A stretch of DNA of 64,000 nucleotides from Gammaproteobacteria bacterium (GCA_030426265.1 JAUHYP010000013.1:3817-67816); one strand, 5' to 3'. Positions 7,846 to 63,045 are shown, counted from the first letter of the stretch. Notes: a model not told the origin generated them from the sequence alone. Made by a program: numbers and translations.

Positions 7846-10284
7846 TCAGTCCAGGGAGTGGGCGGCCAGCAGTTCGCGGAAGGGTTCGTCGTCCATTCCG
7901 GCGTCACGGAGGGTGTCGACCAGGGGTCGCGCCTCTTCGTAGCGACCCAGATGCACCAGTGCGGTGGCCTGGGTGTACTGGTAGTACTTGTTGTCCGGCT
8001 CCCGGGCCAGGACGGGCGTCATCAGTCTGGATGCTTCGCTCCAGAGCGCCACGGCCTGCTCCCTGGTACCGATTCGGGCCAGCACGCTACCCAGGCTGAC
8101 CAGGTCGATAGCCAGGTCATTGGCCGCGGTAAAGCTGCCCGAGTCGGCTTCGGCGAGCTGGCGCGAGATGTCCAGGCTCTCTTTGTACAGCGCTCGCGCC
8201 GCCTCCAGGTTGCCCTGGCGCTCGGCGATCTCCCCGCGCGTGGTGAGTGAATAGGCCAGCTCCCGTTCGTACTCGAGGTTCTGTGGCGCCATGAGCTGCA
8301 GCTGGCGGCCGGTTTCGATGGCCCGGTCCGCCGCGGCCGCAGCCTCGGCGGCGCGACCCTCCTGGGTCAGCATGAAGGCCAACTGGTTGAGCACGATGCG
8401 CAGGTTGTGGTGGGTTTCAATGACGTCTCCGGCCTCAGCCACGGCCCCTTCCGCCTGTTCGATGGCGCGGCGCATGGCGGGCTCGGCTTCCGCGGCGTCG
8501 CCATAGTCGTAGGCGTACCAGGCCAGCGCCTGCCAGCTGTGGGATCGGTTGATCAGCCAGTCATGGGTCTCGACGCCCACCTGCTGTGTATTGGCGAGTT
8601 CCAGGGCTGCCTGTAGTTGTTCCTCGGCCTGTTCTGGCCGGTCGTATTCCATCAGGTACCAGCCCAGCAGCAAGCGTGCTTCCCACAGCAGGGCGTGGCC
8701 TTCATCGTATTGATCCACCAGGCGCCCGGCACGGTCCACCGCTTCGCGCAAAAGGGTCTCCGTGACGGCGCCCTGACCTTCGGTGGCGCTGGACTCGCTT
8801 TCGAGGATCAACAGGGTCGCCCGCTGGCGCAGCCAGTCGCGCTCCCGCCCGGGCGCCTGCTCCAGCGGCGCCAGGTTCAGCGCGGCCTGTTCGAAGGCAT
8901 GCTGGGCCCGGGTGGGTTGTTCCAGGGCATCGAGCACCTGGCCGGCGTTGGCGTAGGCGGCCGAGGTCAGCAAGCGGGCGTCATCGTCCATGATGCCGGG
9001 GTCCTGCTGCGACAGATGTTCCAGGCTGCGGTCCGCGACCAGGGAGAGCAGGTCGATGCGTCCCAGGTCGGTCAAGCGCTCGAACAGGTCGCCGAGCATG
9101 AAGTTGATCAGGGTGTCGCTTTGCTTCTTCTCAGCCAGGGTGGCCGACTGCAGGCTCCTCACGTCCATGGTGTACTTGAACGTGAACGCCACGCCAGCGA
9201 ACAGCGCAAGGGCCGCCACCGAGGCGGCCAGGGCATGACGCCGCAGGGCCTTTACGACGACGTGAAACAGCCGGTGCCGACTGGCCTCCAGGGGAAATCC
9301 GTTGAGCCAGGCGTCGAGGTCGATGCGCAGGGCCTCCGCCGACGCGTAGCGATCCTCGGGATGCTCTCGGGTGCATCGCTCGATCACATCCACCAGGTCT
9401 CCGGGCACGCCATGCGCGGACAGGGCGCGACGCCGGGCATCCCGGGTCATGCGGCCAGCGTTGTCCGTGTCGCCGTCGAGCAGCACCTGGGCCAGCAGTA
9501 TCCCCAGGGCGTACAGGTCGGCGCGCGGGTCCACGGCTTCGCCGGCCAGTTGTTCCGGAGCCGCAAACCCCGGCGTGCCGAAGCGAACCCCTCGTCGTGC
9601 CTGTCCAAGGCCGGCGGCTTCCAACGCGATGCCGAAATCGATCAGAACGGGATAGGCCGCGCCACTGATGTCGCGGATGAGGACATTGGCCGGCTTGATG
9701 TCCATGTGCACGATGCCCCGCAAGTGCACGAAACGCAGGGCATCGCACAACTCGCGAAACATCCGCACGACCGAACGCGTGTCGGATGCATGCTGACGGA
9801 AATACGCGTCAATGTGCGGTCCGTCGATCTTCTCGAGCACCAGCCAGGGGCGGCCGCCCGCACCGAAGCCGCCATCGAGGATCTGCACGATGCCGGGGTG
9901 GCCCAGGTCCGCCAGCAACTGCATCTCGCGCAGCAGCTGTTCCCGGGCCGTGTCCTGGTCGTAACGCGCAGCGAGGAGCTTGATGACGACCGTCCGGGCG
10001 TACACGCCGTCCGCGCGCTCCGCCAGGTAGACATCGCTCTGGCCGCCGGTGTCCAGGCGCTCCAGTACGCGATAGCGCGTGCCGCCGATCTCGGCGGTGG
10101 GTGGTTCGTCCTCGAAGGCTTGTCCGAGCAGGCTGCCCAGGCGGTCCTGGAGGGCGGGGGGCGCCAGGGGCGCTTCGATGCCCAGTTGGCGCAGGCAATC
10201 TTCGGGATCGAGGCTGTCGTCGTCGTCAAAGGCGGCATCGATTCGCCGCCAGAGTTCGTGGGTGTTCCCGGGTGGCTCGTTCAT
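7846..10284 (-). CDS. membrane Ser/Thr protein kinase with extracytoplasmic TPR-like repeats
   Basis: Hanks kinase motifs are present: VVIKLL Lys, HMDIKPANVLI catalytic loop, DFGIA and APE. One TM helix (LAASVAALALFAGVAFTF) is followed by about 430 aa of helical TPR-like repeats. An ATGA overlap with the sigma gene lies at 10281-10284. Confidence 0.9.
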   Translation of the reverse strand: MNEPPGNTHELWRRIDAAFDDDDSLDPEDCLRQLGIEAPLAPPALQDRLGSLLGQAFEDEPPTAEIGGTRYRVLERLDTGGQSDVYLAERADGVYARTVVIKLLAARYDQDTAREQLLREMQLLADLGHPGIVQILDGGFGAGGRPWLVLEKIDGPHIDAYFRQHASDTRSVVRMFRELCDALRFVHLRGIVHMDIKPANVLIRDISGAAYPVLIDFGIALEAAGLGQARRGVRFGTPGFAAPEQLAGEAVDPRADLYALGILLAQVLLDGDTDNAGRMTRDARRRALSAHGVPGDLVDVIERCTREHPEDRYASAEALRIDLDAWLNGFPLEASRHRLFHVVVKALRRHALAASVAALALFAGVAFTFKYTMDVRSLQSATLAEKKQSDTLINFMLGDLFERLTDLGRIDLLSLVADRSLEHLSQQDPGIMDDDARLLTSAAYANAGQVLDALEQPTRAQHAFEQAALNLAPLEQAPGRERDWLRQRATLLILESESSATEGQGAVTETLLREAVDRAGRLVDQYDEGHALLWEARLLLGWYLMEYDRPEQAEEQLQAALELANTQQVGVETHDWLINRSHSWQALAWYAYDYGDAAEAEPAMRRAIEQAEGAVAEAGDVIETHHNLRIVLNQLAFMLTQEGRAAEAAAAADRAIETGRQLQLMAPQNLEYERELAYSLTTRGEIAERQGNLEAARALYKESLDISRQLAEADSGSFTAANDLAIDLVSLGSVLARIGTREQAVALWSEASRLMTPVLAREPDNKYYQYTQATALVHLGRYEEARPLVDTLRDAGMDDEPFRELLAAHSLD

Positions 10285-19314: not shown

Positions 19315-19521
19315 GGCATTGTCGCCGGGTGGGAACTCCTGGATGCACTGTCGCAATGGATCGACGCCTTCGCGGGCGGAGGTGGGATCGACATCGCCGT
19401 GCTGTTCGCCAGCGCCCTGGCCGTGACCATCTACTGCAAGCTGATGGCGAAAACCCTGGCGCCGAAGCACGTCCGGGTGAATGTCGTGACGCTAGCTGGT
19501 TTCAGAATGCCGCCGGCTTGA
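19315..19521 (+). pseudogene. possible remnant of a short-chain dehydrogenase gene
   Basis: This open frame has no start codon and reads GGGGIDIAVLFASALAVTIYCKLMAKTLAPKHVRVNVVTLAGF. It matches the SDR pattern (Y-x3-K, then A-K-x2-A-x3-[IV]-R-V-N-x4-G) seen in the intact SDRs of this window. Both ends are truncated and the segment overlaps the 3' end of the TIR gene. Confidence 0.3.
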
Positions 19522-21460
19522 GGTTTCGCGAATGCCAGACCATGCCGTTCTCGTCGGTGCCCTGGTAGTAGTCGCCGACCCGCCTGTGAAAGGGAATTCG
19601 GATGTTGAGCGGTTCACCTGATGTTACGACCAGTCCGCTCAATTGAACGCCGAGGTGAATCGGGTTTGTCTGGTGGTCTCCGGCATCGAGCAAGGGATAC
19701 CCGCTTCCGTGAATCTGTTGCGCTGATTTGCCCGGAAGGATCAACTGCCCGTCGAATTGCTGATCGGAGGCCAGTTGGAACTGTAGTTCGATCACTCCAT
19801 GGAGGCTCGCCGCCCGTGCTTCCCAGTGGCCCTCGTACCGGACCTCCTGAACTCCTTCGTCATTGACCTGGCGGGCCGGTACGAATCGGGGTAAGTGTGA
19901 AGTGTCCGCCTTGCTGCTCAGGTCTTCCCCGGTCGCAAGTCGCTGCTCGATACTCTCAAGGTCTTGCTGGGTTTTGCGCGAGGAGGCGGCCTCCCTCTCC
20001 AAAAGGTCGACGAGGTCCTGGACCAGGTAGGGAAATTCAGACCTGAACCGGCTTTCGTTCAATCCAACAGCGTGCAGTGTGGTCAGCCGCTTCAGGGAGC
20101 TGGGAAGTTCTTCAATCGCGGGCATATCGGCGCCATTCAGAAGTACCGGAAGGATCGCACGGAAACTCTCGAAGGCGGTTTCCACCTCCCTGCGGACCAC
20201 GTCCTGGACGGTCATTATCCCGCCATTGCGAGTCCAGTCCTTATCGATCAGGACCAGTACCACGTTTGCCCGGCGTATTTCGTCGCGAATCGCTTGGGTC
20301 CAGTCCGTTGCTGCTACGTTGTCCGCCACGTCCTGGAACACCTTCATGCGGGGAAAACGCAGCTCCAGTTCGCGTTTGATCTGTCCCGCCAGCGTCGAGG
20401 CGCCGGAGCGGCGGTAGGACAGGACAATGCGTGTCTCGCGCTGGCGGACATAGGCATCCTGTTGCAGAGGTTGCATCCATGGCCTCGCGGCGGGCTCGAA
20501 CTCGTCTGCCAGGTCGGGAGCGGTCGAACTATAGTCACCTGGCGCCAACCCCTGGCTGAGCATGAGAGCGGTGGCAATCCGCGCCAGCTGGCCGTACTCC
20601 TCGAAACCGGTCGCTTCGGGATGCGTGGCATTCCGCGACAGGGTGACGTAGGCCTCCAGGGCCGAGGGGAAGGCACAGAGTTTGCAGAGATCCCGCAACA
20701 GATTCGACCGCAGGCTGGGCCTGTGCGGGTCCAGGTGAATGCCGAACAGGTTTTCACGCAGGGAATCTGTATGTCGACCCATCTTGCTGTACACCACCGC
20801 CAGGGTGCCACGAAAGTAGGCGTCGTAGGGATTGAGCTGTTTGAGGCCTTCAAATCCCTCTCGCGCCGAGTCGATGTCGCCGCGCTTTAGCGCCTGAAAG
20901 TGTTCTTCCGCCCTGTCGTAGGCTTGTTCCATGGTCACGCGTTCCACCACGGACCGCGCCTCGCCGTCGACCAGGAGACTGGCCAGTTCCCGTTCCGCAT
21001 CGTCGAAGAGTCGACTGAGGCCCGATCCGGCCAGGTCGGCGTACAGGCGCAGCGCTCGTTCGGTATCGGCCCGTTGATCGGGTCTGGCGATTCGCATGTG
21101 CGTCACCAGGCCATTGCCAAGGACATCCGGAAGCTGGTCTGCACAGTCAGCGTAGGACCAGGCATCGATGGGATCCAGCTGTTCAAACCGGGCATTGGTG
21201 AATGCATTGAGCGCTCGCATCGACCGGACCAGTGCGATCTGTGTGAACTGGACTTCGAGCGCGGCCGGTCGATCACCGAAGCGCTGCAGGAAGGTTGCTA
21301 TCGCGTTGCTGGCGGCGGTGAGTGATTTCGCGTCCAGTGCGAGGGGACGGGTGCACCCCAGCAGCTCCTGTTCGTCGCCAGGAAGCAACGCCTGTCCACA
21401 GTGCCGACAGAAGGCGCTGTCGTCAGGATTGTCGCCCTGGCATTGCGTGCACTGCGTCAT
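19502..21460 (-). CDS. zinc-ribbon / TPR-like / TIR-domain protein with unknown C-terminal domain
   Basis: Start MTQCTQCQGDNPDDSAFCRHCGQ (CxxC...CxxC zinc ribbon). Helical TPR-like middle region. The TIR domain lies at about 19997-20434 (RIVLSYRRSGAS ... VVLVLIDKDW ... REVETAF). About 135 aa of unassigned beta-rich C-terminus follow. Confidence 0.8.
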   Translation of the reverse strand: MTQCTQCQGDNPDDSAFCRHCGQALLPGDEQELLGCTRPLALDAKSLTAASNAIATFLQRFGDRPAALEVQFTQIALVRSMRALNAFTNARFEQLDPIDAWSYADCADQLPDVLGNGLVTHMRIARPDQRADTERALRLYADLAGSGLSRLFDDAERELASLLVDGEARSVVERVTMEQAYDRAEEHFQALKRGDIDSAREGFEGLKQLNPYDAYFRGTLAVVYSKMGRHTDSLRENLFGIHLDPHRPSLRSNLLRDLCKLCAFPSALEAYVTLSRNATHPEATGFEEYGQLARIATALMLSQGLAPGDYSSTAPDLADEFEPAARPWMQPLQQDAYVRQRETRIVLSYRRSGASTLAGQIKRELELRFPRMKVFQDVADNVAATDWTQAIRDEIRRANVVLVLIDKDWTRNGGIMTVQDVVRREVETAFESFRAILPVLLNGADMPAIEELPSSLKRLTTLHAVGLNESRFRSEFPYLVQDLVDLLEREAASSRKTQQDLESIEQRLATGEDLSSKADTSHLPRFVPARQVNDEGVQEVRYEGHWEARAASLHGVIELQFQLASDQQFDGQLILPGKSAQQIHGSGYPLLDAGDHQTNPIHLGVQLSGLVVTSGEPLNIRIPFHRRVGDYYQGTDENGMVWHSRNLKPAAF

Positions 21461-21501: not shown

Positions 21502-22482
21502 TCAGATCCGCCCCTTCTGAACCAGCCGCCGGTAGTGCTCGCCCAGCTCCGTCAGCCTGCACGCTGTGCGCTCCATCGCGGCATGCCACATGTTGGCCTT
21601 CGAGGCGCCCACGGGGACGACCAGGTTCAGGCGGTTCATTTTCTGCAACAACAGGAACCTGGCGACGTTTTCCGGGTCGGGAGGCGGCGCGTCCGGTTCG
21701 CGGCCGGCCATTTCCGGTTCGAAGCTCGGGTCCAGCGCGAACTCGCTGCCGGGTTCGGGGAAGAATTTCAGGATCTTGCGCAGCTCAGCGAGCTCGATCG
21801 GCGGCGGGACGTTTCTCAGCGACACGAACTTCTTGATATTGGTCCGGAACAGCGGGCGCTGCTCGAAGCCGCCCAGTGATTCGTCGATGTGCGCGTAGAC
21901 GCTGCCGGGCGATATGGCGCCCAGCAGATTCGCGGCGCTGCCTTTCAGGGCATCCACGAACAGGGTCGTGAACACTCCGCGCCCGTCCTTTTCACTCGCA
22001 TACTGCTCCGCGGTGGATGCGGTGAGCACTGTCAGGCCTTCGGACAGGACCACGAGGTCCTTGTGCAGGGGCGCGGCGCCCGCGATGCCGGAGTGGCAGC
22101 TGTCCAGGATGACGAGCTTGTTCCGGGCCGGTGAAAGGTTGGCGTAGGTCAGGACGTCGTTGAGCGAGAGCCCTTCGTCGCCCCGGCTCGAGTCCGAGGT
22201 CAGCAGGTAGCCGCCCGTCGCCTCGATGTGCCCATGGCCGGCGAAGTAGAACAGGGCCACGTCCGCGTCGATGGAGAACACTTCCTTGACGGCGTCGCGC
22301 AGCTGCCTCCGTCCGAGGCCGCTGGCAGCGTCCTTCGCCAGGAACGGCTTGCAATCGAAGTTGCGGGAACCATCACCGTTCCGACCCAGGACATCGAGCA
22401 CGGCACGGGCATCCTCGACGCACCCGAACAAGGGCCGCCCGTGTTGGTAGTAATTGATTCCGACAACCAGCGCGACGCGCAT
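21502..22482 (-). CDS. caspase-like (Peptidase_C14 / orthocaspase-type) protease with unknown C-terminal domain
   Basis: MRVALVVGINYY start. The catalytic His sits in FYFAGHGH (codon 22234-22236) and the Cys in ILDSCHSG (22096-22098). About 115 aa of unassigned C-terminus follow. An alternative GTG start lies at 22491. Confidence 0.85.
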   Translation of the reverse strand: MRVALVVGINYYQHGRPLFGCVEDARAVLDVLGRNGDGSRNFDCKPFLAKDAASGLGRRQLRDAVKEVFSIDADVALFYFAGHGHIEATGGYLLTSDSSRGDEGLSLNDVLTYANLSPARNKLVILDSCHSGIAGAAPLHKDLVVLSEGLTVLTASTAEQYASEKDGRGVFTTLFVDALKGSAANLLGAISPGSVYAHIDESLGGFEQRPLFRTNIKKFVSLRNVPPPIELAELRKILKFFPEPGSEFALDPSFEPEMAGREPDAPPPDPENVARFLLLQKMNRLNLVVPVGASKANMWHAAMERTACRLTELGEHYRRLVQKGRI

Positions 22483-22653
22483 TTCGTCCACTCACGATCG
22501 AATTGTCTATAAATGTAGCAAGTGCGGAGCATCTTGCTCGTGCGCGCAGGTCTTTGTTTTTCAAAGCGACAGGGCGCAGACTATGGGCAGGCCGGTGGGT
22601 GGTTGGTGCTATTCGCCGGACACGCCGCACGCTGTACGGAACGAGGCGCCCTT
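22483..22653. promoter_or_regulatory. divergent control region between the two TIR/caspase operons
   Basis: About 170 bp, locally AT-richer. It holds a TATAAA element at 22508-22513 and an inverted repeat AGCAAG-N10-CTTGCT at 22517-22538. No promoter could be called confidently. Confidence 0.3.
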
Positions 22654-25554
22654 GTGAATGACATCCACATACCCGGCTACGAAATCCTCAAGCAGTTGGG
22701 GATCGGGGGCATGGCCAGGGTGTACAAGGCGCGCCAGTTGTCGCTGGAGCGGGAAGTCGCCATCAAGGTCTTGCGGGCCGATCTCGGGGACGACGTCGAG
22801 TCCTTCAAGAGGCGGTTTTTCAACGAGGGCAGGATCCTCGCCAGCATCACGCACCCCAACATTGTCGCCGTCTACGACCTCGGCGAGGCGGGGGACGCGC
22901 TCTACATCGCCATGGAGCTCGTGCCCGGGGACACCCTCGAGGAGATGGTCCGCAGGGACGGCGTGACGCTGGAACAGGCCATCGGAATCTGCCGGAAGAT
23001 TGCAGGCGCCCTGGATCGGGCGCACGCCAAGGGCGTGATTCACCGCGACATCAAGCCCTCGAACATCCTCATGGAAGACCTGGACACGCCGAAGCTGGTC
23101 GATTTCGGCATCGCCCGGGGTCGCCAGGCCGATGTCGGCATGACCCAGGAAGGCGTCATGCTCGGCACGCCGTTGTACATGAGTCCGGAGCAGGTCCAGG
23201 GCGTCGCCATCGACGAGCGTACGGACATCTATGCGTTGGGCGTCACGCTGTACTGGCTCCTGGCGGGCCGCCATCCTTTCGAGGGGGACGCCGCGCTCGG
23301 CATCGCACTCAAGCACCTGCATGATCCGATCCCCGAACTTCCCGAAGCGGTGGCCGGACTGCAGGCCATCGTCGAGCGCGCGATGGCCAAGGACCCGGCA
23401 GATCGTTTCCAGAGCGCCAGGGAGTTTGCCGATGCCCTCGACGCGGTGGAACTCGATGGTCCGCCGCTCCATCTCGGTGTTCCGACCGCCGATCCGGCGG
23501 GACCCACGCTCGGTCGCACCCAGCCGGCTTACCCGACCCTCGAGGTGCCCCGCAGGGGCGCCTCGCCCGCGACGAAACGCGGTGGTTGGCTCAGCGCCAT
23601 CCTCGGCTGGTTCGGGAAGTCAGACGACGGGGGTGAAGCCGGAACGACCGGGCGCGCATCCGCTCAAGCTCCCGCGGCGCCGGACCCGCAGGCGCAGACC
23701 CACCCACAGATGCCCTCCGTCTCCGGTTCCGAAAAGGGTGCAACGCCGGCCCCCACGCCGGCCCCCTGGCAGGAGTCCACGGGCGCCGCCACCATCCTGA
23801 GTCCCATCACGCCGCCCGCCGAACCCGAATCCCCACCCACCCTCCCCGGGGAACTGGCGCCGCCGTCGGGTGATGACACGCAGTTCCTGGTTCCCGGCGA
23901 GGCCGGCACGGAGCAGGGGCTGGTCGTCAGCCTCGCCGTGACGAGCTCGCCTGACCCATCGTTCGTGGGCACCCGGGTCCAGTGCCAGTCGTTCCCGTTC
24001 CGGATTGGCAGGGGCGGAGAGGCCGATCTGAAAATCGAGCGCGACAGCGCCATCTCCCGGAACCATGCCGAGATCTTCAAGATCGGCTCGGGGTATTACC
24101 TCAAGGACACCAGCGCCAACGGCATCGTGGTCAACGGACAGCTGGGCAAGGACCAGTCCGTGCCCCTGCCGTTCAACAGCTCGATCCAGCTCTCCGATTC
24201 GACGACGCTGACGTTCCAGCCCCACCTCGAACTGCTGCCGGACCTGACGGGCCAGCGCATCGGCGACCGTTTCGACGTCGAGAAAGCCCTCCACCACAGC
24301 ATCAAGGCCTCCACCTACCGCTGCCGGGACCTCGACATGCCGCGCACCGTGGTGGTCAAGCTGTTCTCCCCGCACCTCATGTCCCTGGAGCAGTTCCGGG
24401 ACGAATTCGAACGGCAGGCGAGGCTGACCATGAAGTTCACTTCGCCGCACATCGTCAAGGTGCTCGAGTTCAAGGAGTTCCCGATCCCGCAGATCGCCGC
24501 CGGCAAGCCGGTTTCCTACGTGTGCACCGAGTACATGGAAGGCGGCAGCCTGGCCCGGCGCATGGATGACGAGGACTTTCCGGAAGCGGAACAGGCGCTG
24601 AACTGGGTGGTCGTGCTGGCGCGCGCGTTGGACCATGCTCACCGGCGCGGTGTCGTGCATGGCGACCTCAAGCCCAGCTGCATCGTGTTCGATGCCGACG
24701 GCGCGCCCTACGTCACGGATTTCGCCATGGCGGTGACGGAAGGGGAGGGCAAGGACAGCGCCCGGACCGGCACGCCGGCCTTCTGGGCGCCGGAACAGTG
24801 GGACCGCCAGGCGGCGACCGAGCGCACGGACCAGTACAGCCTGGCCGTGCTGGCCTACTTCATGCTCTCCGGCGCCCGGCCCTTCGAAGGCCAGTCGCAG
24901 CCCCGGATTCGCGAGCGAAACTTCCGCCGCGGCCCCGAGCCGGTGCACGAGGTGGCCGAGCGACGGCGCGGACTGGCGCTCAACAGCAACCTGTCCCAGG
25001 TTCTGGCGCGGGGCATGAGCGTCGACCCGGAAGCGCGCTACGAGTCCGTGACCGCCTTCGCCACCGCCCTGTCCCAGGCAGCGCACACGGCCGAGCAGCG
25101 CCGCAGCACCCCGCGCGTGTTCATCAGTTACCGGCGCAAGGCCAACGCGGGTTGGGCGAACCTCTTTGATTACAACCTCAGGAACCAGTTCGGGTTCGAG
25201 GTGTTCATCGATGCGCGCGCGGTGGACGGTTCGCCGCAGATCCCGACCCGGGTGCGGAACGAAATCGATCGTTGCGATGTCTTCGTCTGCCTGCTCCACC
25301 CCGAGACACTGGAGTCGGACTGGGTGCGGGCGGAGATCAAGCTGGCGCACGAGGCCCGCAAACCCATGGTTCCGGTGTTCTCGGAACACTTCCAGCCCGG
25401 CGCCTACAAGGAGGCGGCGGCCGAAATCCAGGCCCTGCTGGACCACGAGGCCGTCATCTTGCTCGACCAGAAGAACGTCTACCTGGATGCGGCCCTCAAG
25501 ATGCTGGCCGACCAGGTGCAAAAGCTCGTGGGGCCGAGCGGTCGCGTGCACTGA
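22654..25554 (+). CDS. Ser/Thr kinase - FHA - kinase-like (possibly pseudokinase) - TIR fusion protein
   Basis: - Kinase 1 (about 22678-23445): GIGGMARVY loop, VAIK Lys 22765-22767, HRD Asp 23047-23049, DFG, SPE.
- Pro-rich linker.
- FHA (about 23950-24225): FRIGRG, SRNHA, ANG.
- Second kinase-like domain (about 24250-25075): no Gly-rich loop, HGD at 24658-24666, DFA instead of DFG.
- C-terminal TIR (about 25111-25530): RVFISYRR ... SDWVRAEI.
- The start is inferred as GTG 22654 (GAGG upstream); the track start at 22522 is an upstream GTG. Confidence 0.85.
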   Translation: MNDIHIPGYEILKQLGIGGMARVYKARQLSLEREVAIKVLRADLGDDVESFKRRFFNEGRILASITHPNIVAVYDLGEAGDALYIAMELVPGDTLEEMVRRDGVTLEQAIGICRKIAGALDRAHAKGVIHRDIKPSNILMEDLDTPKLVDFGIARGRQADVGMTQEGVMLGTPLYMSPEQVQGVAIDERTDIYALGVTLYWLLAGRHPFEGDAALGIALKHLHDPIPELPEAVAGLQAIVERAMAKDPADRFQSAREFADALDAVELDGPPLHLGVPTADPAGPTLGRTQPAYPTLEVPRRGASPATKRGGWLSAILGWFGKSDDGGEAGTTGRASAQAPAAPDPQAQTHPQMPSVSGSEKGATPAPTPAPWQESTGAATILSPITPPAEPESPPTLPGELAPPSGDDTQFLVPGEAGTEQGLVVSLAVTSSPDPSFVGTRVQCQSFPFRIGRGGEADLKIERDSAISRNHAEIFKIGSGYYLKDTSANGIVVNGQLGKDQSVPLPFNSSIQLSDSTTLTFQPHLELLPDLTGQRIGDRFDVEKALHHSIKASTYRCRDLDMPRTVVVKLFSPHLMSLEQFRDEFERQARLTMKFTSPHIVKVLEFKEFPIPQIAAGKPVSYVCTEYMEGGSLARRMDDEDFPEAEQALNWVVVLARALDHAHRRGVVHGDLKPSCIVFDADGAPYVTDFAMAVTEGEGKDSARTGTPAFWAPEQWDRQAATERTDQYSLAVLAYFMLSGARPFEGQSQPRIRERNFRRGPEPVHEVAERRRGLALNSNLSQVLARGMSVDPEARYESVTAFATALSQAAHTAEQRRSTPRVFISYRRKANAGWANLFDYNLRNQFGFEVFIDARAVDGSPQIPTRVRNEIDRCDVFVCLLHPETLESDWVRAEIKLAHEARKPMVPVFSEHFQPGAYKEAAAEIQALLDHEAVILLDQKNVYLDAALKMLADQVQKLVGPSGRVH

Positions 25555-25688
25555 ACGCCTGGCGGGTGCGGCGCAGGGCGAGGCAGGGGCCTGCCCGAAC
25601 CAGCGAATTTCCCGGCGCTGTCCTATAGTCGAATTCATGCGGATCATTTCAATGATTCGTTGTCGACACGGAAGGAGGTCAGAGGGAA

Positions 25689-27533
25689 GTGGCCAGGAAA
25701 GCGGCCATCGTGATCGGGGTGAACACCACGGGTGGCCTCACCCCGTTGCGCTCGGCGGCGCGCTGCGCCGACGAGGTGGCGGAGTGGCTCGAGGCGGAGG
25801 GCTATGACGTCGCCTGCCTGACGGACGCGGACGAACCGGTCACCACCGGCCGCGTCACCGACGCCATGGACCGGTTCGTGACCGTGCCGCCGCGCTATGC
25901 GCAACTGGTGGTGTACTTCACCGGACACGGGTACTGGCACGCCCGGGCCGACATCTGGCTGCTCAGCAAGGCGCCGGTCCGGACGGAAGAAGCCATCAAC
26001 CTCGAGGGCGCCATCGACCTGGCCCGCTATTCGGGCATCCGCAACGTCATCTTCATCTCGGACGCCTGCCGGTCCCTGCCCGACGTACGGTCCGGCGCGC
26101 TGGTCCAGGGCATCGACGCTTTTCCCAACTTCGCCGACATCACGACCCAGTCGAAGATCGACGTGTTCCGCGCCACCAGTGACGCCCAGGCGGCCTACGA
26201 GGCGGAGGTGGACGGCCAGCCCACCAGCCTGCTGACGCACGCGCTGCGTGCGGCCTTCCGCGAACCCGAGCCCGACATGCTGCGGGACGTGGGCGGTCAG
26301 CAGGTCGTCCCGAACCGGCGGCTCGAGAAGTACCTGCAGCGCAAGATCGACACCACCCTGGGGGCCATCGACCTCAACCTGCGCCAGCGCATCGAGGTCA
26401 ACGTCCCCTCGGATGACGACATCTACATCGCGACCGCCGCCGTCGCCCCGAGCCGACCGCCACCCGGCGAAGTCGTGCATCGTGGTGCGGGCGACGACTT
26501 TGGGATGGACGACCTTCCCATGACTTCGGGTGCGGAGCCGGCATCCCCGGAACCGGAGCCCCCGAAATCGGTGCCTCCCGCAGAGGCCGTTCCCCCCGCG
26601 CCTTCGGTGCTCGGGGACATCCGCGGCAACCTGGATCGCGTGTTCTCCGAGCCCATGGGCATGTCCGACTCCGCCACGATCAATTTCACGATGGACATGA
26701 CGGAGACCGTCGACCGCCTGTCCGGACTCATGCCCCGACCGGACGTGGCGGATCACTTCGAATCCCATTGCGGGTTCACGATTTCCGGCGCCCGGATCGA
26801 GGAGGCCATCTGCGGCGGCGCCGCGGACGGGGTCTTCATCGAACGGTTGTACGAGGGCGATGGCGCGGACCAGCCGGCCGTGGTCCGCCTGTGGGACGCC
26901 GCCCCCGGCGCGACCGTGTTGCTGCGCACGGACGACGGTCGCGTCCTGGTGCTGGCCGGCTTGCCCGATTTCATCGGGCACGCGACGGTCGGCGAAGCCG
27001 GCCTGAAGAACGTGAGCTACATCCCGTCGTCCAATGCCGGCGAGCTCTACGATTTCTACCGGGAAAAGCAGGAGCGCATCGATCGCTTCCGCGCCCTGGT
27101 CGCCCTGGCGGCCAACGAAAACGAGTTCCGGCTGGAATCCGATGACGCGGCCATCCGGCTGGCGGACGAGATCCGGATGGTCAAGGCCCTGGATCCCACG
27201 CTGGGACTGTACGCCGCCCATGCCTACGCCCAGGCCAGCAAGGTGGAAAAGGTGGCCAGTGTCGCCGACGCCATGCGCCACGACCTGCACATCGACCTGT
27301 TCGACCTGGTCGTATTGACCTCGCGCCGTGGCGATCCCTGGCCGGACCGCCCGGTCATGCCGTTCTGCCCGCTGCTCACGCAAACCTGGAACCTGCTCCG
27401 GCCCCGCGGAATCGAGCTGCATCCCGCGCTGGCGGAAGCGTCCGCCTACCTGCGCAACGCCCTGTGGACGACCTTCGAGGCCGAGGCCTGGGATCCGCTC
27501 CGCGCGGCGATGGAATTGGGAGAGTTGAGATGA
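25689..27533 (+). CDS. caspase-like protease domain with a ~400-aa unknown C-terminal region
   Basis: GTG start with AGGAGG SD. KAAIVIGVN is followed by His in VVYFTGHG (25926-25928) and Cys in FISDACRS (26067-26069). A Pro-rich linker leads into an unassigned C-terminal region. Confidence 0.8.
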   Translation: MARKAAIVIGVNTTGGLTPLRSAARCADEVAEWLEAEGYDVACLTDADEPVTTGRVTDAMDRFVTVPPRYAQLVVYFTGHGYWHARADIWLLSKAPVRTEEAINLEGAIDLARYSGIRNVIFISDACRSLPDVRSGALVQGIDAFPNFADITTQSKIDVFRATSDAQAAYEAEVDGQPTSLLTHALRAAFREPEPDMLRDVGGQQVVPNRRLEKYLQRKIDTTLGAIDLNLRQRIEVNVPSDDDIYIATAAVAPSRPPPGEVVHRGAGDDFGMDDLPMTSGAEPASPEPEPPKSVPPAEAVPPAPSVLGDIRGNLDRVFSEPMGMSDSATINFTMDMTETVDRLSGLMPRPDVADHFESHCGFTISGARIEEAICGGAADGVFIERLYEGDGADQPAVVRLWDAAPGATVLLRTDDGRVLVLAGLPDFIGHATVGEAGLKNVSYIPSSNAGELYDFYREKQERIDRFRALVALAANENEFRLESDDAAIRLADEIRMVKALDPTLGLYAAHAYAQASKVEKVASVADAMRHDLHIDLFDLVVLTSRRGDPWPDRPVMPFCPLLTQTWNLLRPRGIELHPALAEASAYLRNALWTTFEAEAWDPLRAAMELGELR

Positions 27534-28405
27534 GAATCCTGTTCATTCACGGACGCGCCCAGGGTGGCAAGGACCCGGTCGCCCTGGCGAAACTCTGGAA
27601 CGACACCCTGAAGCTGGGCTTGGAATCGGCCACGGAGGCCCTGCCGGACGGGGTCGGGGTGGACTTTCCCTATTACGGCGATGCGCTGGACGACTTCACC
27701 GCGCGCGCCGATCTGCCGTCCCCGGACGAGGTGGTCGCCAAGGGGCCGGGCCAGGACGCCGGCTTCGAATCGTTCATGCAGAGCGCCCTGGACGAGATGT
27801 ACCAGAAATCCAGCCTCACCGAGGACCAGGTGGAAGCCGAGATGACCACCGGCCAGGTGCAGGAGAAGGGCCCGCAGAACTGGGGCTGGGTGCAGGCCAT
27901 CGCCCGGGCCCTGGACAAGCATGTCACGGGAGCGGCGGACTGGACCATCGACCGATTCCTGAAGGACGTGTACCTGTACGTCAACATCCCGACCGTCACC
28001 CGCGGCATCAACGCCATCGTCGAGGACATGATCACGGATGAGCCGACCGTGGTGGTCGGCCATTCCCTGGGCACCGTGGTGGGCTACAAGGTCATCCAGG
28101 AGAACCAGGGCAGGCTCAACGCCTGCAAGTACATCACCCTGGGCTCACCCCTGGGCATTCGCGCCATCAGTTCGAAACTGGGCCTCCCGGAAAACCTCGC
28201 CAAACAGGGCTGGTACAACGCCTACGACGACGGCGACGTGGTGGCCCTGAACCCGCTGGATGACCGGTATTTCCCGACCGACCCGGAAATCGTGAACAAC
28301 AACGGCGTCCACAATTTCACGGACAACCAGCACGGCATCGCCGGCTACCTGAACGACGCCAGGGTGGCGGCGGAGATCGTCAAGGCGGTGCGCGGTCACC
28401 CTTAG
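27530..28405 (+). CDS. alpha/beta-fold hydrolase (lipase/esterase-like)
   Basis: ATGA overlap with the upstream stop (27530-27533). MRILFIHGRAQGG start. The nucleophile elbow is VVVGHSLGT (Ser codon 28064-28066). There is no signal peptide. Confidence 0.75.
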   Translation: MRILFIHGRAQGGKDPVALAKLWNDTLKLGLESATEALPDGVGVDFPYYGDALDDFTARADLPSPDEVVAKGPGQDAGFESFMQSALDEMYQKSSLTEDQVEAEMTTGQVQEKGPQNWGWVQAIARALDKHVTGAADWTIDRFLKDVYLYVNIPTVTRGINAIVEDMITDEPTVVVGHSLGTVVGYKVIQENQGRLNACKYITLGSPLGIRAISSKLGLPENLAKQGWYNAYDDGDVVALNPLDDRYFPTDPEIVNNNGVHNFTDNQHGIAGYLNDARVAAEIVKAVRGHP

Positions 28406-28432: not shown

Positions 28433-29551
28433 TCAGTCCTGGTCGGATTCAGTGATGCGAATGTCGCGGAGCAGTCGCTCCAGGGCACGCTCATAGCTCG
28501 TGGCGTCCTGCCAGTTCGAGAAATCACCGATCTGCCGCGCGTTGCGAATGTCCGAACTCCAACCTGATTCCACATCGAGAATCGAGTCGTCGAGCCGGAT
28601 CGGCAGGAGGACGCCGATCTTCAGTTTGGTTTCCTTGCGAAAAGCGGTTTCGACTTCCTTTTCGATCCACGGGCTCTCAAAGGAATTCGCGGACAGCACG
28701 AGCAGCAGGTGATCGTGTTGCCCGATGGCTTCGTCGATGCGGTTGCGAATACGGTCGCCGATTCTCATGTCTTCCGGAGCGAACCAGCAGCGAACCCCTG
28801 CGGCCTGCAGGTCCCCGTACAGCTTCCGGACGAAGGCTTCGTCACGTTGGTTGTAACTGATGAAACAGGAGCGGTATTTCTGAAGCTGGGCGACCTCTTC
28901 GGTATACAGCGCGATCACCCTGTCCGGCATGCCGCAACCTCGCAGAAATTCCGGAACGGCATGCCCCATCCAGCGAACGGTGTCGTGATCCAGGGAACTG
29001 GGGCCGAGATGAACCGTGTCGTCGAGTCCGGTCGCTTCGCGAAAGTCGGTCCGACCGAAGACGGTATCCAGGAAACTCGCCCGGCCAAGCGCCGCGCGAT
29101 AGAAATTGGTTTTGCGAAGGTCTGCGCCCGCCAGGTTGCTCCCGGTCATGGTTGCGCGAACCAGGCGGGCCCTGCGCAGGCAGGCCTGGCTGAGATCTGA
29201 ATCGATGAGATAGGCGCGCTCCAGGTTCGCGCCGCTGAGGTCTGCCTGGTACAGGGTCGCGTGATCGAGCGTCGCCTTGCTCAGGTCAGCCCCTCCGAGA
29301 TTGGCCTTGACCAGCCGTGCGCCCGTCAGGTTCGCGCCACAGAGGTTCGCGTAGGTCAGGTTGGCATGGCCCAGATCCGAGCCGGAAAGATCGGTGCCCA
29401 GGAGCATCGCGTCCTGCAGGTCGATGTGACCCAGGTCCTTTCCAGCCAGGTTGGCGCCGGACAGGTTGGCGTCTTCCCCTCGGCGCTGTTTCCACTCGTT
29501 CCATGCGAGAACGCCGGCTTCGAGCTTGCGCAACTGCTTGGGGTTCGCCAT
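28433..29551 (-). CDS. pentapeptide-repeat - TIR-domain protein
   Basis: ATG at 29551 (MANPKQLRKLE). About 28 pentapeptide units (ANLSGANLAGKDLGHIDLQDAMLLGTDLSG...) span about 29053-29473. The C-terminal TIR lies at about 28570-28870 (SCFISYNQRD ... LLLVLSANSFESPWIEKEVETAF). Confidence 0.85.
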   Translation of the reverse strand: MANPKQLRKLEAGVLAWNEWKQRRGEDANLSGANLAGKDLGHIDLQDAMLLGTDLSGSDLGHANLTYANLCGANLTGARLVKANLGGADLSKATLDHATLYQADLSGANLERAYLIDSDLSQACLRRARLVRATMTGSNLAGADLRKTNFYRAALGRASFLDTVFGRTDFREATGLDDTVHLGPSSLDHDTVRWMGHAVPEFLRGCGMPDRVIALYTEEVAQLQKYRSCFISYNQRDEAFVRKLYGDLQAAGVRCWFAPEDMRIGDRIRNRIDEAIGQHDHLLLVLSANSFESPWIEKEVETAFRKETKLKIGVLLPIRLDDSILDVESGWSSDIRNARQIGDFSNWQDATSYERALERLLRDIRITESDQD

Positions 29552-29596
29552 GCGGTCGTTTCCTTTGACCTCGATCCCGGCCGAGGGATCCAGTCC

Positions 29597-29624
29597 GATC
29601 ACCACCAAAAAAGTCTAGCGCAAG
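29597..29624 (+). repeat. right copy of the direct repeat bracketing the TIR/caspase island
   Basis: The core AAAGTCTAGCGCAAG at 29610-29624 is identical to 19242-19256. A perfect 7-bp inverted repeat CGAACGG-N5-CCGTTCG follows at 29636-29654. Confidence 0.55.
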
Positions 29625-29724: not shown

Positions 29725-30246
29725 ATGATGCCATCCGGTGATGCCAACATGAGCCACGCACGTCCGATCCCTTCAGAGGTCCGCTACCGCGACCCGGCCT
29801 TCGAGCAGGCACTGGGGAGTCTTGGTGGCCCCGTGAAGGGGCAGGGCGCCACGGTCTGGCTGTTTACCGGGATGCCGGGCGCGTTCCTGCGCAAGGAAGC
29901 CCAGTCCGTGGCGGCCCGGCTGGGCAAGCGCCTGGTCACGGTCGACCTGAAACCCGCCGGCAGCCGCTACATCGGCGAAACGGAAAAGAACCTGTCCCGC
30001 ATGTTCGGCGAGGCCAGCCGCTCCGGCTGGATCCTGTTCTTCGACGAGGCCGACGCCCTGTTCGGCAAGCGCAGCAACGTCCAGGACGCCCACGACCGAT
30101 ATGCCAACCAGGAAGTCAGCTACCTGCTGCAATCCATCGAGGCGCACCAGGGCCTGGTCATCCTGGCGACCAACCATCCTTCCGCGGCGAAACCGGCGTT
30201 CAAGTCCAGCCGGACGCGGAGCATGGTGGTGAAGTTTCCGCCTTAG
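29725..30246 (+). CDS. truncated/degenerate classical-clade AAA+ ATPase module
   Basis: The core is strongly AAA-like: SRYIGETEKNLSRMFGEA, Walker B ILFFDEADALFGKR (30031-30054) and DRYANQEVSYLLQ. The Walker A position reads GMPGAFLRKEA (29869-29895) instead of GxxGxGK[ST]. The protein is only 173 aa. Confidence 0.7.
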   Translation: MMPSGDANMSHARPIPSEVRYRDPAFEQALGSLGGPVKGQGATVWLFTGMPGAFLRKEAQSVAARLGKRLVTVDLKPAGSRYIGETEKNLSRMFGEASRSGWILFFDEADALFGKRSNVQDAHDRYANQEVSYLLQSIEAHQGLVILATNHPSAAKPAFKSSRTRSMVVKFPP

Positions 30247-62025: not shown

Positions 62026-63045
62026 TCAGTCCGGTCGTCCAAACCCTCGGTAGCCGAGGAACACCAGGCTCAGGATGAGCGCGAGCAATCCGGCCATCGA
62101 AAGCGTGGGAATGACCTCGGTGGGCGCGACTGGCGGAGCCCCGGGCGCTGCGTTGACCATGAAGCTCAGGACGATCTGCCCGTCGCCCAGGTTGATGTCC
62201 GGGGTGACGGTACCCGTCAGCAGGCCACCGGAGTAGCTGGAACCGCCGCCGCCGCCGCCGCCGCCAACGCCTGAACCATTGCTGGCGCCGCCGCCACCAC
62301 CACCACCGAAGTAGCCGCCGCCACCGCCACCGCCGGCCACGTCATACAGGCCGTTCGATCCGGTGCCCCCGACGCCGATGGCGCCGGCGGTGCCCACGTT
62401 GGTGGCGCCGCCGTCCTGGGGTCCACCCAGGCCGCCGGTGGTGTCACTGCCGCCCGATCCGAAGTTGATGCCGGAGCCCGCGTAGGCAAAGCCGCAGTTG
62501 AACGCAGGATCGCCATCGAGGCCCAGGATGTCGCCGGCCGAACCGCCCGCACCACCGCAGCCGCATGGTTGGCAGGTCCCGTTGCAGTAGTCCCTGCCGC
62601 CACCACCGCCGCCGCCGGCCACGGCCACGCGGTCCGCCAACGTGTTGCCGCCCTGGCGGATGTCGGAAGCGCCGCCGCCGCCGCCGGCGGGGCCGCCACT
62701 GCAACCGCTGCCGGCCTGTCCGTTGCCACCGGCGCCGCCGCCGTTGAAGCCGCCTGTGCCGGTGTTGCTGCCCATGCCTCCGACGTAGAGGTACAGGGTT
62801 TCGCCAGGTGTGACCTGTAGGGTGCCGACCAGTTGAGAACCGAGTCCGCTGCCGCCGAGGTCCTCCCGCCGGTCGAGCGCCGCAGCGCCTTCCCCGCCCA
62901 TGAGTTCGATATCGACCTCGTTTACACCGGGCGGAACGACCCAGGTCTGCTCAGCGCCTGTGAAATTGAAGGTCTGAATGGTTTGCGACAGGCCGACTGC
63001 AGGTAGCAGCAAGCCGCTCAGTACGAGCACGGCACGAAATGACAT
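62026..63045 (-). CDS. secreted glycine-rich protein with IPTL-CTERM-type sorting signal
   Basis: Signal peptide MSFRAVLVLSGLLLPAVGLSQ. The N-terminal TFNFTGAEQTWVVPPGVNEVDIELMGGEG is typical of bacterial glycine-rich-domain proteins. Long GGGG tracts follow. The C-terminus reads VIPTLSMAGLLALILSLVFLGYRGFGR (IPTL motif, TM helix, basic tail). Confidence 0.75.
   Translation of the reverse strand: MSFRAVLVLSGLLLPAVGLSQTIQTFNFTGAEQTWVVPPGVNEVDIELMGGEGAAALDRREDLGGSGLGSQLVGTLQVTPGETLYLYVGGMGSNTGTGGFNGGGAGGNGQAGSGCSGGPAGGGGGASDIRQGGNTLADRVAVAGGGGGGGRDYCNGTCQPCGCGGAGGSAGDILGLDGDPAFNCGFAYAGSGINFGSGGSDTTGGLGGPQDGGATNVGTAGAIGVGGTGSNGLYDVAGGGGGGGYFGGGGGGGASNGSGVGGGGGGGGSSYSGGLLTGTVTPDINLGDGQIVLSFMVNAAPGAPPVAPTEVIPTLSMAGLLALILSLVFLGYRGFGRPD

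Follow-up and report, generated by a model that had tools for sequence, protein, structure and literature searches.

A kinase–FHA–pseudokinase–TIR protein as a candidate phosphorylation-gated TIR enzyme

TIR NADases are executioners common to bacterial, plant and animal immunity, and the systems that use them differ in how the enzyme is switched on, which is mostly unknown. A gene in a 64,000-nucleotide stretch of DNA from a gammaproteobacterium (GCA_030426265.1, JAUHYP010000013.1:3817-67816; hereafter the window) raises the question of what two kinase domains and a phosphopeptide reader are doing in front of a TIR domain. The coding sequence, at 22654–25554 on the + strand, encodes a 966-amino acid protein (P0001) in which a kinase, a linker, an FHA domain, a pseudokinase and a TIR domain follow one another on a single chain. 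Read from its sequence, the product is an active-looking kinase, a predicted phosphothreonine reader and a dead kinase placed before a SARM1-like TIR.

The GTG at 22654 was taken as the start codon because a Shine–Dalgarno-like GAGG read from the sequence (22643–22646, + strand) lies 7 nt upstream of it, an independent gene call gives the same 966-residue product and the alignments of homologues begin at the residue it encodes. With this start supported, a longer open reading frame from 22522 is unnecessary. The initial annotation had proposed an intact Ser/Thr kinase, an FHA domain, a degenerate kinase and a TIR domain in this frame, and every motif it listed was found in place when the sequence was read directly. 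The four domain calls hold by Pfam, searches against PDB chains, conservation in the family and Foldseek. The codons it had singled out for mutation, 22765–22767, 23047–23049 and 25333–25335, do encode K38, D132 and E894. Pfam Pkinase matches the protein in two stretches with 266 bits, far above chance, as are the Pfam scores of the FHA and TIR domains given below. The pTM of the full-length AlphaFold2 model was only 0.53. Throughout, the conservation of domain residues was computed over 35 family members, and the linker motif described below was counted over 80.

Kinase 1 (22678–23448, + strand; residues 9–265, Pfam Pkinase 9–253) is a PknB-like Hanks Ser/Thr kinase with its catalytic set intact. 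All of the Hanks features are present, namely the Gly-rich loop (GIGGMARVY, 16–24), the β3 Lys (VAIK, 35–38), the αC Glu, HRD-x-K-x-x-N (HRD, 130–132), DFG (150–152) and the APE motif as SPE (177–179), and K38, E58, H130, R131, D132, N137, D150, F151, G152 and E179 are invariant in the 35 homologues. In structural searches it comes closest to PknB, to which it is 40% identical, with the PknB–GarA complex 6i2p among the top matches. The activation loop holds a T164-Q, which corresponds to the TQT motif in the activation loop of PknB, and position 164 is Thr in 32 of the 35 members. On these residues kinase 1 is predicted to be catalytically intact and to carry out phosphotransfer.

Between kinase 1 and the FHA domain lies a disordered Pro-rich linker of roughly 150 amino acids (23461–23913, + strand; residues ~270–420), with an AlphaFold2 pLDDT below 50 over residues 279–420. 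It is hypervariable in both length and sequence, running from 100 to 201 amino acids across the family with a mean pairwise identity of 0.20, and longer homologues have TPR repeats inserted at this position. This variable middle region, which takes the form of a Pro-rich linker in the present protein and of TPR arrays in homologues, is most likely the site of input or sensing. Two conserved threonines stand out within it. The weaker motif is AATILSP (23785–23805, + strand; residues 378–384), whose T380 is conserved in at least 90% of the 35-member alignment. The other is a [D/E]-x-T-x-Φ-Φ motif, DDTQFL (23872–23889, + strand; residues 407–412), and its T409 is a candidate autophosphorylation site and FHA ligand. 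Scored as [DENSQ]-x-T-x-Φ-Φ, it occurs in 61 of the 80 members, where shuffling would lead one to expect 5.3, and it sits 36–50 residues upstream of the FHA Gly-Arg, with a mode of 41–43. This conserved T409 motif inside a hypervariable linker is a new finding. The segment has a pLDDT of 34–37 in the AlphaFold2 model; the motif could, instead of being a phospho-site, belong in part to the structure of the FHA fold, extending it at its N-terminal side.

The FHA domain itself (23914–24228, + strand; residues 421–525) is matched by Pfam at 450–513 (E 1e-11; 45.6 bits, above the cut-off of 20.7) and modelled with a pLDDT of 78–94. It carries FRIGRG (449–454), SRNHA (468–472) and ANG (488–490), and the phosphothreonine-binding set, G452, R453, S468, R469, H471, N489 and G490, is invariant or at least 90% conserved among the 35 members; from these residues the domain is predicted to be competent to bind phosphothreonine.

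The second Pkinase stretch (24256–25089, + strand; residues 535–812) is a different matter, as it keeps the kinase fold and has lost much of the chemistry. ALHHSIKAS (545–553) stands where a Gly-rich loop is lacking, HRD has become HGD (669–671), the catalytic-loop Asn is Cys and DFG is DFA (689–691), with K569 (of VVVK, 566–569) and D689 kept. The description of this domain as degenerate proved to apply family-wide: the HRD-Arg column is Gly in 33 of 35 members, the HRD-Asp column reads D20/G11/N3/A1, so that 15 of the 35 members lack the catalytic Asp, none of the 35 has Asn in the catalytic-loop Asn column and the DFG-Gly column is Ala in 30. The fold is retained, as a sequence search of PDB chains finds PknB (E 6.6e-27) and the pLDDT is ~85–98. 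The mean pairwise identity of the pseudokinase, 0.46, is the joint highest in the protein together with that of the TIR domain.

The TIR domain (25111–25533, + strand; residues 820–960) is marked by RVFISYRR (821–828) and SDWVRAEI (888–895) and matches Pfam TIR_2 with 53.1 bits, where the cut-off is 28. The SARM1 TIR is its best match among PDB chains (phmmer, E 6e-7), and E894 (codon 25333–25335), at the W-x-x-x-E position, is aligned there with E642 of SARM1, the Glu in its DWVHKEI motif. The residue is unchanged in 35 of 35 members, in keeping with its earlier designation as the catalytic Glu. Modelled by AlphaFold2 (pLDDT 86, pTM 0.84) and searched with Foldseek, the domain returned only SARM1/TIR-1 structures among its top 12 matches (TM 0.68–0.80, E 2.6e-8 to 2.3e-6), the best of them SARM1 (E 2.6e-8, TM 0.73–0.80), at 26–28% identity (24% for TIR-1). 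The likeness to SARM1 extends to the FISYRR start motif, and as in SARM1/TIR-1 and in the bacterial TIR NADase effectors (ThsB-type, AbTir and the SPARTA TIR), the effector is C-terminal, behind regulatory domains. What differs is the control, which in SARM1 is exerted through an ARM domain, a SAM domain and the ratio of NMN to NAD+, whereas here there are a kinase, an FHA domain and a pseudokinase, with no SAM-like oligomerisation domain.

These parts could be assembled into a self-contained, single-chain phospho-switch of the PknB/GarA kind that would gate a SARM1-type TIR NAD+ hydrolase, a reading to which we give an even chance. Kinase 1 would autophosphorylate on its activation loop (T164) and then on T409, and the FHA domain would bind pT409, either in cis, as in the intramolecular switch of GarA and OdhI, or in trans, as in Chk2; the roughly fixed spacing of 36–50 residues between T409 and the FHA domain suggests binding in cis. 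The binding of pT409 would rearrange a rigid FHA–pseudokinase–TIR module, with the pseudokinase acting as a scaffold or dimerisation platform that either unites TIR domains or holds them apart. Assembled TIRs would then cleave NAD+, leading to growth arrest or abortive infection, or would release an ADPR-derived signal; the TIR could also make a signalling nucleotide in place of depleting NAD+. The earlier suggestion of a phosphorylation-gated TIR gains strength from the conserved residues of kinase 1 and the FHA domain (35 members) and from the Thr motif upstream of the latter; phosphorylation could either drive or restrain the TIR.

The closest precedent for such a switch is the mycobacterial pairing of PknB/PknG with GarA (OdhI). 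The GarA motif continues as ETTSVF. As in GarA, the FHA domain here is preceded by an unstructured segment with an acidic-x-Thr-x-hydrophobic-hydrophobic motif; the ETTS motif of GarA lies in an unstructured extension before its FHA domain, and its phosphorylation turns GarA off (PMC5448819). GarA differs in being a separate small protein that controls TCA-cycle enzymes, whereas the present protein joins a PknB-like kinase, the motif and the FHA domain on one chain, followed by the pseudokinase–TIR, and T409 is only a candidate phospho-site. A second comparison is with switches of cell death and immunity, RIPK3–MLKL, the (pseudo)kinase–effector fusions IRE1/RNase L and plant tandem kinases such as Sr62TK and RWT4 (bioRxiv 10.1101/2024.08.30.610287, 10.1101/2024.04.30.591956), with which the protein shares the pairing of an active and a degenerate kinase and a pseudokinase immediately before an executioner domain. 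The logic of these switches fits the pseudokinase as a scaffold or decoy, but it is pure analogy, with no specific homology found past the kinase fold, and where this protein has a TIR they have a 4-helix bundle, RNase or NLR partner, with no FHA reader interposed. It is rather doubtful, to our minds, that this would be the first phosphorylation-gated prokaryotic TIR enzyme and the single-chain bacterial counterpart of those eukaryotic switches, in which the pThr mark written by kinase 1 and read by the FHA domain would license the NADase and the pseudokinase would serve as a built-in decoy or sensor for kinase-targeting phage factors. Among bacterial defence kinases (Stk2, PD-T4-6, MADS Mad6 and BREX PglW), kinase 1 matches the PD-T4-6 and Mad6 models with up to 474 bits, but these matches (PADLOC, a model set without cut-offs) cover generic kinase domains only, and those systems are themselves without FHA, pseudokinase and TIR modules.

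How widespread the arrangement is bears on what it may be for. It had been described as an unusual fusion, which overstates its rarity: a database search for the same architecture and its spread showed a recurrent family, with the FHA–pseudokinase–TIR core present in ~100 clusters at 50% identity among 1.84 billion representatives. Members usually carry the N-terminal kinase and sometimes the inserted TPR repeats, and come from metagenomes and MAGs of unrelated lineages, two of them with acidobacterial names. The accompanying statement that no kinase–FHA–TIR protein has been characterised agrees with the literature searched, and curated defence models (PADLOC, NCBIfam) gave no match past generic kinase or TIR similarity. 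No neighbour gene recurs across 29 family loci, so the protein appears to be a stand-alone unit. The most probable biological role, judging from sequence and context, would be anti-phage or conflict-related cell suicide, that is, abortive-infection defence.

Against this must be weighed the possibility of a physiological regulator, an endogenous NAD+ consumer controlled by Ser/Thr phosphorylation, whose task would be metabolic control, development or dormancy under stress, and not phage defence. In around half of the family contexts the surrounding genes are ordinary housekeeping or metabolic ones, and defence genes are missing from the vicinity; one member lies between plsX/rpmF and fabG/acpP (L088), and two more are among metabolic genes (L086 and L090). 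The family was not found in phage and plasmid collections or in IMG/VR, and the PknB/GarA paradigm is one of metabolic regulation (PMC5448819). We nevertheless consider this reading unlikely, as the spread is patchy, the ~100 clusters being scattered over unrelated lineages and differing genomic sites, transposase fragments or conflict genes adjoin several copies, and some copies are split or frameshifted. Examples are a locus next to smpB with Mrr, a weak Peptidase_U49 match and an IS66 fragment (L084), another with a patatin nearby (L174) and a third in which a TIR fragment is followed by ORFs that look SLOG-like and DUF4062-like by eye (L099). Additional TIR ORFs were seen at 2 of 22 family loci compared with 0 of 80 control kinase loci. 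This patchiness, the mobile and conflict neighbours, the broken copies and the TIR and caspase cluster around the present gene are traits typical of accessory defence genes.

That cluster comprises three TIR proteins within 10 kb, the present one included, two caspases and one hydrolase. Upstream and divergent is a 326-residue caspase-like protease (caspase-326; 21502–22482, − strand) with an AGHG His, a DSCHSG Cys and a ~110-amino acid C-terminal extension (Pfam Peptidase_C14, E 4e-16), and 41 nt downstream of it on the same strand is a 652-residue zinc-ribbon/helical-repeat/TIR protein (19502–21460, − strand; Pfam DZR and TIR_2). On the other side, 134 nt downstream of the gene and on its strand, a second caspase-like protease, caspase-614 (25689–27533, +; 614 aa), has a Peptidase_C14 match at 3–195 with TGHG and DAC motifs and a C-terminal region of ~400 residues of unknown nature. 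Its stop codon overlaps (ATGA) the start of a 291-residue α/β-hydrolase (27530–28405, +) with a FIHG oxyanion motif and a GHSLG nucleophile elbow. The third TIR of the island is a 391-residue pentapeptide-repeat–TIR protein (28433–29608, −; Pfam Pentapeptide and TIR_2, E 1.7e-25), with PADLOC matches to PDC-S66, SAVED-TIR and ThsB-type models. The locus of the closest relative (L002) holds orthologues of the gene under study (66% identical), caspase-326 (59%), caspase-614 (58%) and the hydrolase (72%, with a faint Abhydrolase_6 match). An EACC1/EAD caspase conflict system (Kaur et al. 2020) was considered and rejected, as the caspases score 86.8 (caspase-326) and 31.8 bits with NCBIfam caspase_w_EACC1, under the cut-off of 140, and no EACC1 gene was found among the neighbours in the window by Pfam or NCBIfam.

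The proximity of caspases invites a comparison with type IV Thoeris, in which case an ADPR-derived signal from the TIR would activate the caspases, and these would cut cell proteins or the α/β-hydrolase as a zymogen. In Thoeris systems the TIR sensor shares an operon with an effector that its signal activates, of the SLOG-SIR2, TM/Macro or caspase-like kind. The four genes are linked in both the window and the relative's locus, despite internal rearrangement and otherwise unrelated flanks, and the present protein is the sole TIR-matching one among the called genes of the latter. By description, too, a TIR protein adjoins a caspase-like protease that is extended at its C-terminus, and the C-terminal domain of the type IV Thoeris caspase is proposed to bind N7-cADPR (Rousset et al., bioRxiv 10.1101/2024.10.24.620036). 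A caspase with an α/β-hydrolase has already been described as a protease–effector module (bioRxiv 10.1101/2025.11.14.688446), and by analogy the hydrolase here is likely a caspase-activated zymogen effector. For the gene under study we regard such a role as quite improbable: caspase-326 is linked to it only in this genome and the closest relative, and the caspases and hydrolase are missing from at least 20 other family loci. In the window caspase-326 is divergent from the gene, not in one operon with it, and is already paired with the co-directional TIR protein at 19502–21460. The TIR here bears large kinase, FHA and pseudokinase modules and is closest to NAD-depleting SARM1, and no Thoeris model reached its cut-off, the only match being ThcB4 (NCBIfam, 49.6 bits against 220). 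A non-enzymatic adaptor in the manner of TLR/MyD88–IRAK, whose TIR would be a protein–protein interaction module drawing in the island's other TIR proteins and whose kinase would phosphorylate them or other substrates, would suit the three TIR proteins within 10 kb and the intact kinase 1 and yet is very unlikely, given that the Glu aligned with the catalytic Glu of SARM1 is invariant, that most family loci have no additional TIR genes and that, to our knowledge, the bacterial TIR domains so far studied in defence systems are enzymes.

Returning to the single-chain phospho-switch, it would regulate the TIR by a Ser/Thr phosphorylation that an FHA domain of the same polypeptide reads, and it predicts specific residues that can be mutated: K38, D132, T164, T409, R453, S468 and E894. 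If confirmed, phospho-signalling would join the known modes of bacterial TIR gating, and the protein would offer a tractable minimal model of kinase/pseudokinase control over a death effector. Bacteria would then also have a parallel to the kinase-linked TIR signalling and the tandem-kinase signalling of eukaryotic immunity.

The protein also holds an annotation trap. All NCBIfam equivalogs score under their cut-offs except NF033483 (Stk1/PknB PASTA kinase), with 462 against 450. The match is spurious, since its best stretch covers only profile positions 9–270 of 563 and Pfam finds no PASTA domain in the 966 residues; the cut-off is passed because the scores of the two kinase domains add up, and NCBIfam would wrongly label the protein a "PASTA domain Ser/Thr kinase".

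The gene at 22654-25554 (+), which joins a kinase (kinase 1), a linker, an FHA domain, a pseudokinase and a TIR domain in one chain, belongs to a real, recurrent and uncharacterised family, whose function and trigger we infer. It appears to be a variant of the TIR NADase effectors that carry regulatory modules in the same chain, set apart by its conserved pseudokinase and by a putative Ser/Thr phospho-switch built into the protein. The gene is an ORF of 966 codons, and its GTG start at 22654 was supported by a GAGG 7 nt upstream, by an independent gene call that also gave a 966-aa product, and by homologue alignments that begin at the residue this GTG encodes. All the motifs that the initial annotation had named in kinase 1, the FHA domain, the second kinase and the TIR were found in the sequence where it had placed them, and the three codons it had proposed for mutation encode K38, D132 and E894. 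The domain calls were borne out by Pfam, with two Pkinase stretches (266 bits summed), FHA at 450-513 (45.6 bits, cut-off 20.7) and TIR_2 at 822-912 (53.1 bits, cut-off 28), as well as by a full-length AlphaFold2 model made from 35 homologues, which folded all four domains with confidence (mean pLDDT 79.6) and left the kinase-1 activation loop, along with residues 279-420, disordered. The protein also scored 462 bits against the NCBIfam equivalog NF033483 (Stk1 family PASTA domain-containing Ser/Thr kinase), a score that clears the cut-off of 450 only through the summed contributions of its two kinase domains. Membership among the PASTA kinases was rejected, as the match is spurious and the protein has no PASTA domain, and automated misnaming of the family is therefore likely.

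Conservation was counted in an alignment of 35 full-length members. Invariant or at least 90% conserved were K38, E58, H130-R131-D132, N137, D150-F151-G152 and E179 of kinase 1, the pThr-binding residues G452-R453, S468-R469, H471 and N489-G490 of the FHA domain, and F823, S825, D853, D858 and E894 of the TIR. Kinase 1 is PknB-like (40% identity), with the PknB-GarA complex among its top structural matches, and its activation-loop residue T164 is Thr in 32 of the 35 members. The second kinase domain (residues 535-812) still matched PknB at E 6.6e-27 in a sequence search of PDB chains and keeps the fold while being degenerate family-wide. The Gly-rich loop is absent from the family columns, the HRD Arg is replaced by Gly (33/35) and the DFG Gly by Ala (30/35), the HRD Asp position holds Asp in 20 members, Gly in 11, Asn in three and Ala in one, and none of the 35 has the catalytic-loop Asn, while K569, H669, K673, F690, P713, E714 and W716 are invariant. 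Mean pairwise identity was 0.46 in both the pseudokinase and the TIR, as against 0.40 in kinase 1, 0.39 in the FHA domain and 0.20 in the linker, which argues for strong selection on the dead kinase for a non-catalytic role. Foldseek with the full-length model returned kinases only, so the TIR was modelled alone (pLDDT 86, pTM 0.84). The top 12 structural matches of this model were then SARM1/TIR-1 (TM 0.68-0.80), with plant TIRs, the SPARTA TIR and AbTir ranking lower; SARM1 was also the best PDB sequence match (E 6e-7), and E894 aligned to the Glu of its motif DWVHKEI.

Linker length ranges between 100 and 201 residues across the family, and apart from two conserved Thr islands its sequence cannot be aligned. 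The stronger of these has the form [D/E]-x-T-x-Φ-Φ, reads DDT409QFL in the target protein, and stands 36-50 residues (mode 41-43) ahead of the FHA GR in 61 of 80 linker-bearing members, where shuffling gave an expectation of 5.3. In the model this segment is low-confidence and non-globular (pLDDT 34-37). PknB-type kinases favour upstream acidic residues and a hydrophobic residue at +3, and many FHA domains select pT-x-x-Φ, so that T409 matches the preferences of kinase and FHA alike. The corresponding motif of mycobacterial GarA runs on as ETTSVF, which is again acidic-x-T-x-Φ-Φ. According to the passage of PMC5448819 that cites Nott et al. 2009, GarA has a conserved ETTS motif in the unstructured extension preceding its FHA domain, and phosphorylation of this motif by a Ser/Thr kinase brings about an intramolecular FHA interaction that turns the protein off.

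The protein has an intact kinase, a predicted pThr-competent FHA domain, a conserved Thr motif at constrained spacing, and a conserved pseudokinase placed directly ahead of a TIR that bears the catalytic Glu. The best-supported reading, to which we would give an even chance, is that of a single-chain, PknB/GarA-like phospho-switch that controls a SARM1-type NADase. Kinase 1 would phosphorylate T164 and then T409, and pT409 would be bound by the FHA domain, in cis rather than in trans if the constrained spacing between motif and FHA is a guide. This binding would rearrange the module of pseudokinase and TIR, leading to either assembly or release of the TIR domains, and the assembled TIRs would cleave NAD+. 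The sensor is likely to be the hypervariable or TPR-bearing middle region.

The fusion had first been called unusual, which overstated its rarity, as its FHA-pseudokinase-TIR core recurs in about 100 representatives at 50% identity. A whole-protein homology search was flooded by matches to the N-terminal kinase and gave only three full-length relatives. With the C-terminal 546 residues as query, about 60 clusters at 90% identity shared the kinase-FHA-kinase-TIR order, with identities of 35-50%, and in an exhaustive HMMER search of 1.84 billion 50%-identity representatives roughly 100 matched the FHA-pseudokinase-TIR core. Most of these have 860-1080 aa and the N-terminal kinase. Long members of 1150-1630 aa carry TPR repeats (P0241, P0243, P0265, P0293 and P0297) or one more kinase (P0258, with two N-terminal kinase domains) between kinase 1 and the FHA domain, which marks the middle region as the variable slot of the architecture. 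Nearly all sequences come from metagenomes and MAGs, and the few named members are acidobacterial (Vicinamibacterales, Terriglobales). Neighbouring genes suggest beta- or gammaproteobacterial carriers at other loci. The window comes from an uncultured gammaproteobacterium, and its FadB shares 57-60% identity with proteins of Halieaceae, Cellvibrionales and Pseudomonadales. The FHA-pseudokinase-TIR module was absent from IMG/VR, 50,697 phage records and 72,556 plasmid records, and a contig scan with full-length alignment, run on the generic HRDIKPxN pattern, gave ordinary kinases only and no orthologue among the matches listed. A Terriglobales MAG encodes a pseudokinase-TIR protein of 332 aa that lacks both kinase 1 and the FHA domain (P0181, L174 / L175 6001-6999), next to a gene for a 754-aa patatin-like phospholipase. 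In P0165 (L173 4392-7083) a kinase-FHA ORF and a pseudokinase-TIR ORF overlap by 17 nt; true gene fission was rejected here, since the locus is otherwise orthologous and the split is most likely a frameshift. In P0130 (L084 10326-10798) the TIR end runs on in a different reading frame, and the disruptions in L084 and L173 reflect either gene decay or frameshifts in the assemblies.

When the ORFs of 29 loci were compared all against all, no conserved partner gene emerged, and context look-ups of P0001 (the target), P0002, P0003, P0130, P0159, P0147, P0140, P0143 and P0122 gave no shared neighbour. With no neighbour conserved family-wide, the gene behaves as a stand-alone unit. Recurrent β-lactamase-like and MacB/FtsX genes were set aside as partners, since lineage synteny or an abundance of paralogues seems to account for them. 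Mobile or conflict genes lie beside some copies, among them fragments of IS66 and IS91, Mrr with a weak match to Peptidase_U49 adjoining smpB, and the patatin mentioned above. Directly downstream of one member, L099 4928-6926 contains three ORFs. A TIR fragment of 111 aa, confirmed by BLAST/HMM, comes first; by eye, the second (351 aa) resembles SLOG/LOG proteins and has a C-terminal half like a TIR, and the third seems to have a DUF4062-like start. Other copies are flanked by housekeeping genes. That the protein is a non-immune, physiological regulator of NAD+ is unlikely, and it is the best of the alternatives.

In the window the gene sits in a cluster of roughly 12 kb. A zinc-ribbon/repeat/TIR protein of 652 aa (19502-21460, -) lies 41 nt downstream of, and on the same strand as, a caspase-like protease of 326 aa (21502-22482, -) that is divergent from the target gene. 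On the other side come a caspase fused to a roughly 400-aa C-terminal region without assignment (25689-27533, +), an α/β-hydrolase with GHSLG (27530-28405, +) whose ATG overlaps the caspase stop (ATGA), a pentapeptide-repeat-TIR protein (28433-29608, -; TIR_2 E 1.7e-25), and a 173-aa AAA fragment (29725-30246, +) that resembles the anti-phage ATPase IetA/IteA and is probably a truncated gene. The linkage of the 326-aa caspase, kinase-TIR gene, caspase fusion and hydrolase (21502-28405) is kept in L002 6058-12856, the locus of the closest relative (P0002, 66% identity), where the caspase-fusion and hydrolase pair is inverted and on the opposite side of the target gene; nothing further is common to the two within ±10 kb flanks. 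The caspase fusion and hydrolase at 25689-28405 match the caspase and α/β-hydrolase zymogen pair described as a protease-effector defence module (bioRxiv 10.1101/2025.11.14.688446). A PDB sequence search matched neither caspase and gave only two non-significant matches for the hydrolase (E 0.04-0.15). The 326-aa caspase and the zinc-ribbon/repeat/TIR protein could themselves form a TIR system, either resembling type IV Thoeris or activated by the protease. Signalling from the target TIR to a caspase, of the type IV Thoeris kind, is somewhat less probable than the physiological role, its support being limited to the window/L002 sub-clade. The idea that the TIR is a non-enzymatic adaptor is very improbable for a domain that bears the catalytic-position Glu.

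The phospho-switched NADase so proposed would find its nearest functional counterparts in SARM1 or bacterial TIR NADases for the output and in PknB-GarA for the input. Its combination of a kinase with a pseudokinase has analogues in RIPK3-MLKL, IRE1/RNase L and plant tandem-kinase receptors (bioRxiv 10.1101/2024.08.30.610287), with no specific homology to any of them, and membership in Thoeris, PD-T4-6 or EACC1 systems is not established from the sequence. Literature searches, which took in a systematic TIR-system survey, a domain-centric defence screen, two Aravind-lab conflict-system catalogues and the DUF4062 paper, turned up no description of a bacterial kinase/FHA/pseudokinase plus TIR architecture, in agreement with the earlier impression that no such protein had been characterised. 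Bacterial TIR effectors fused to diverse sensors are by now an expected theme, and this family clearly lends itself to testing and is suggestive in evolutionary terms. A second Ser/Thr kinase, an 812-aa protein with Pkinase and TPR (7846-10284, -), is encoded in the window at a distance of 12 kb upstream from the target. A 339-aa ORF at 62026-63045 (-) matched Pfam ALK_LTK_GRD with 48 bits, an unexpected match on a gammaproteobacterial contig for a glycine-rich domain familiar from the animal ALK/LTK receptor kinases.
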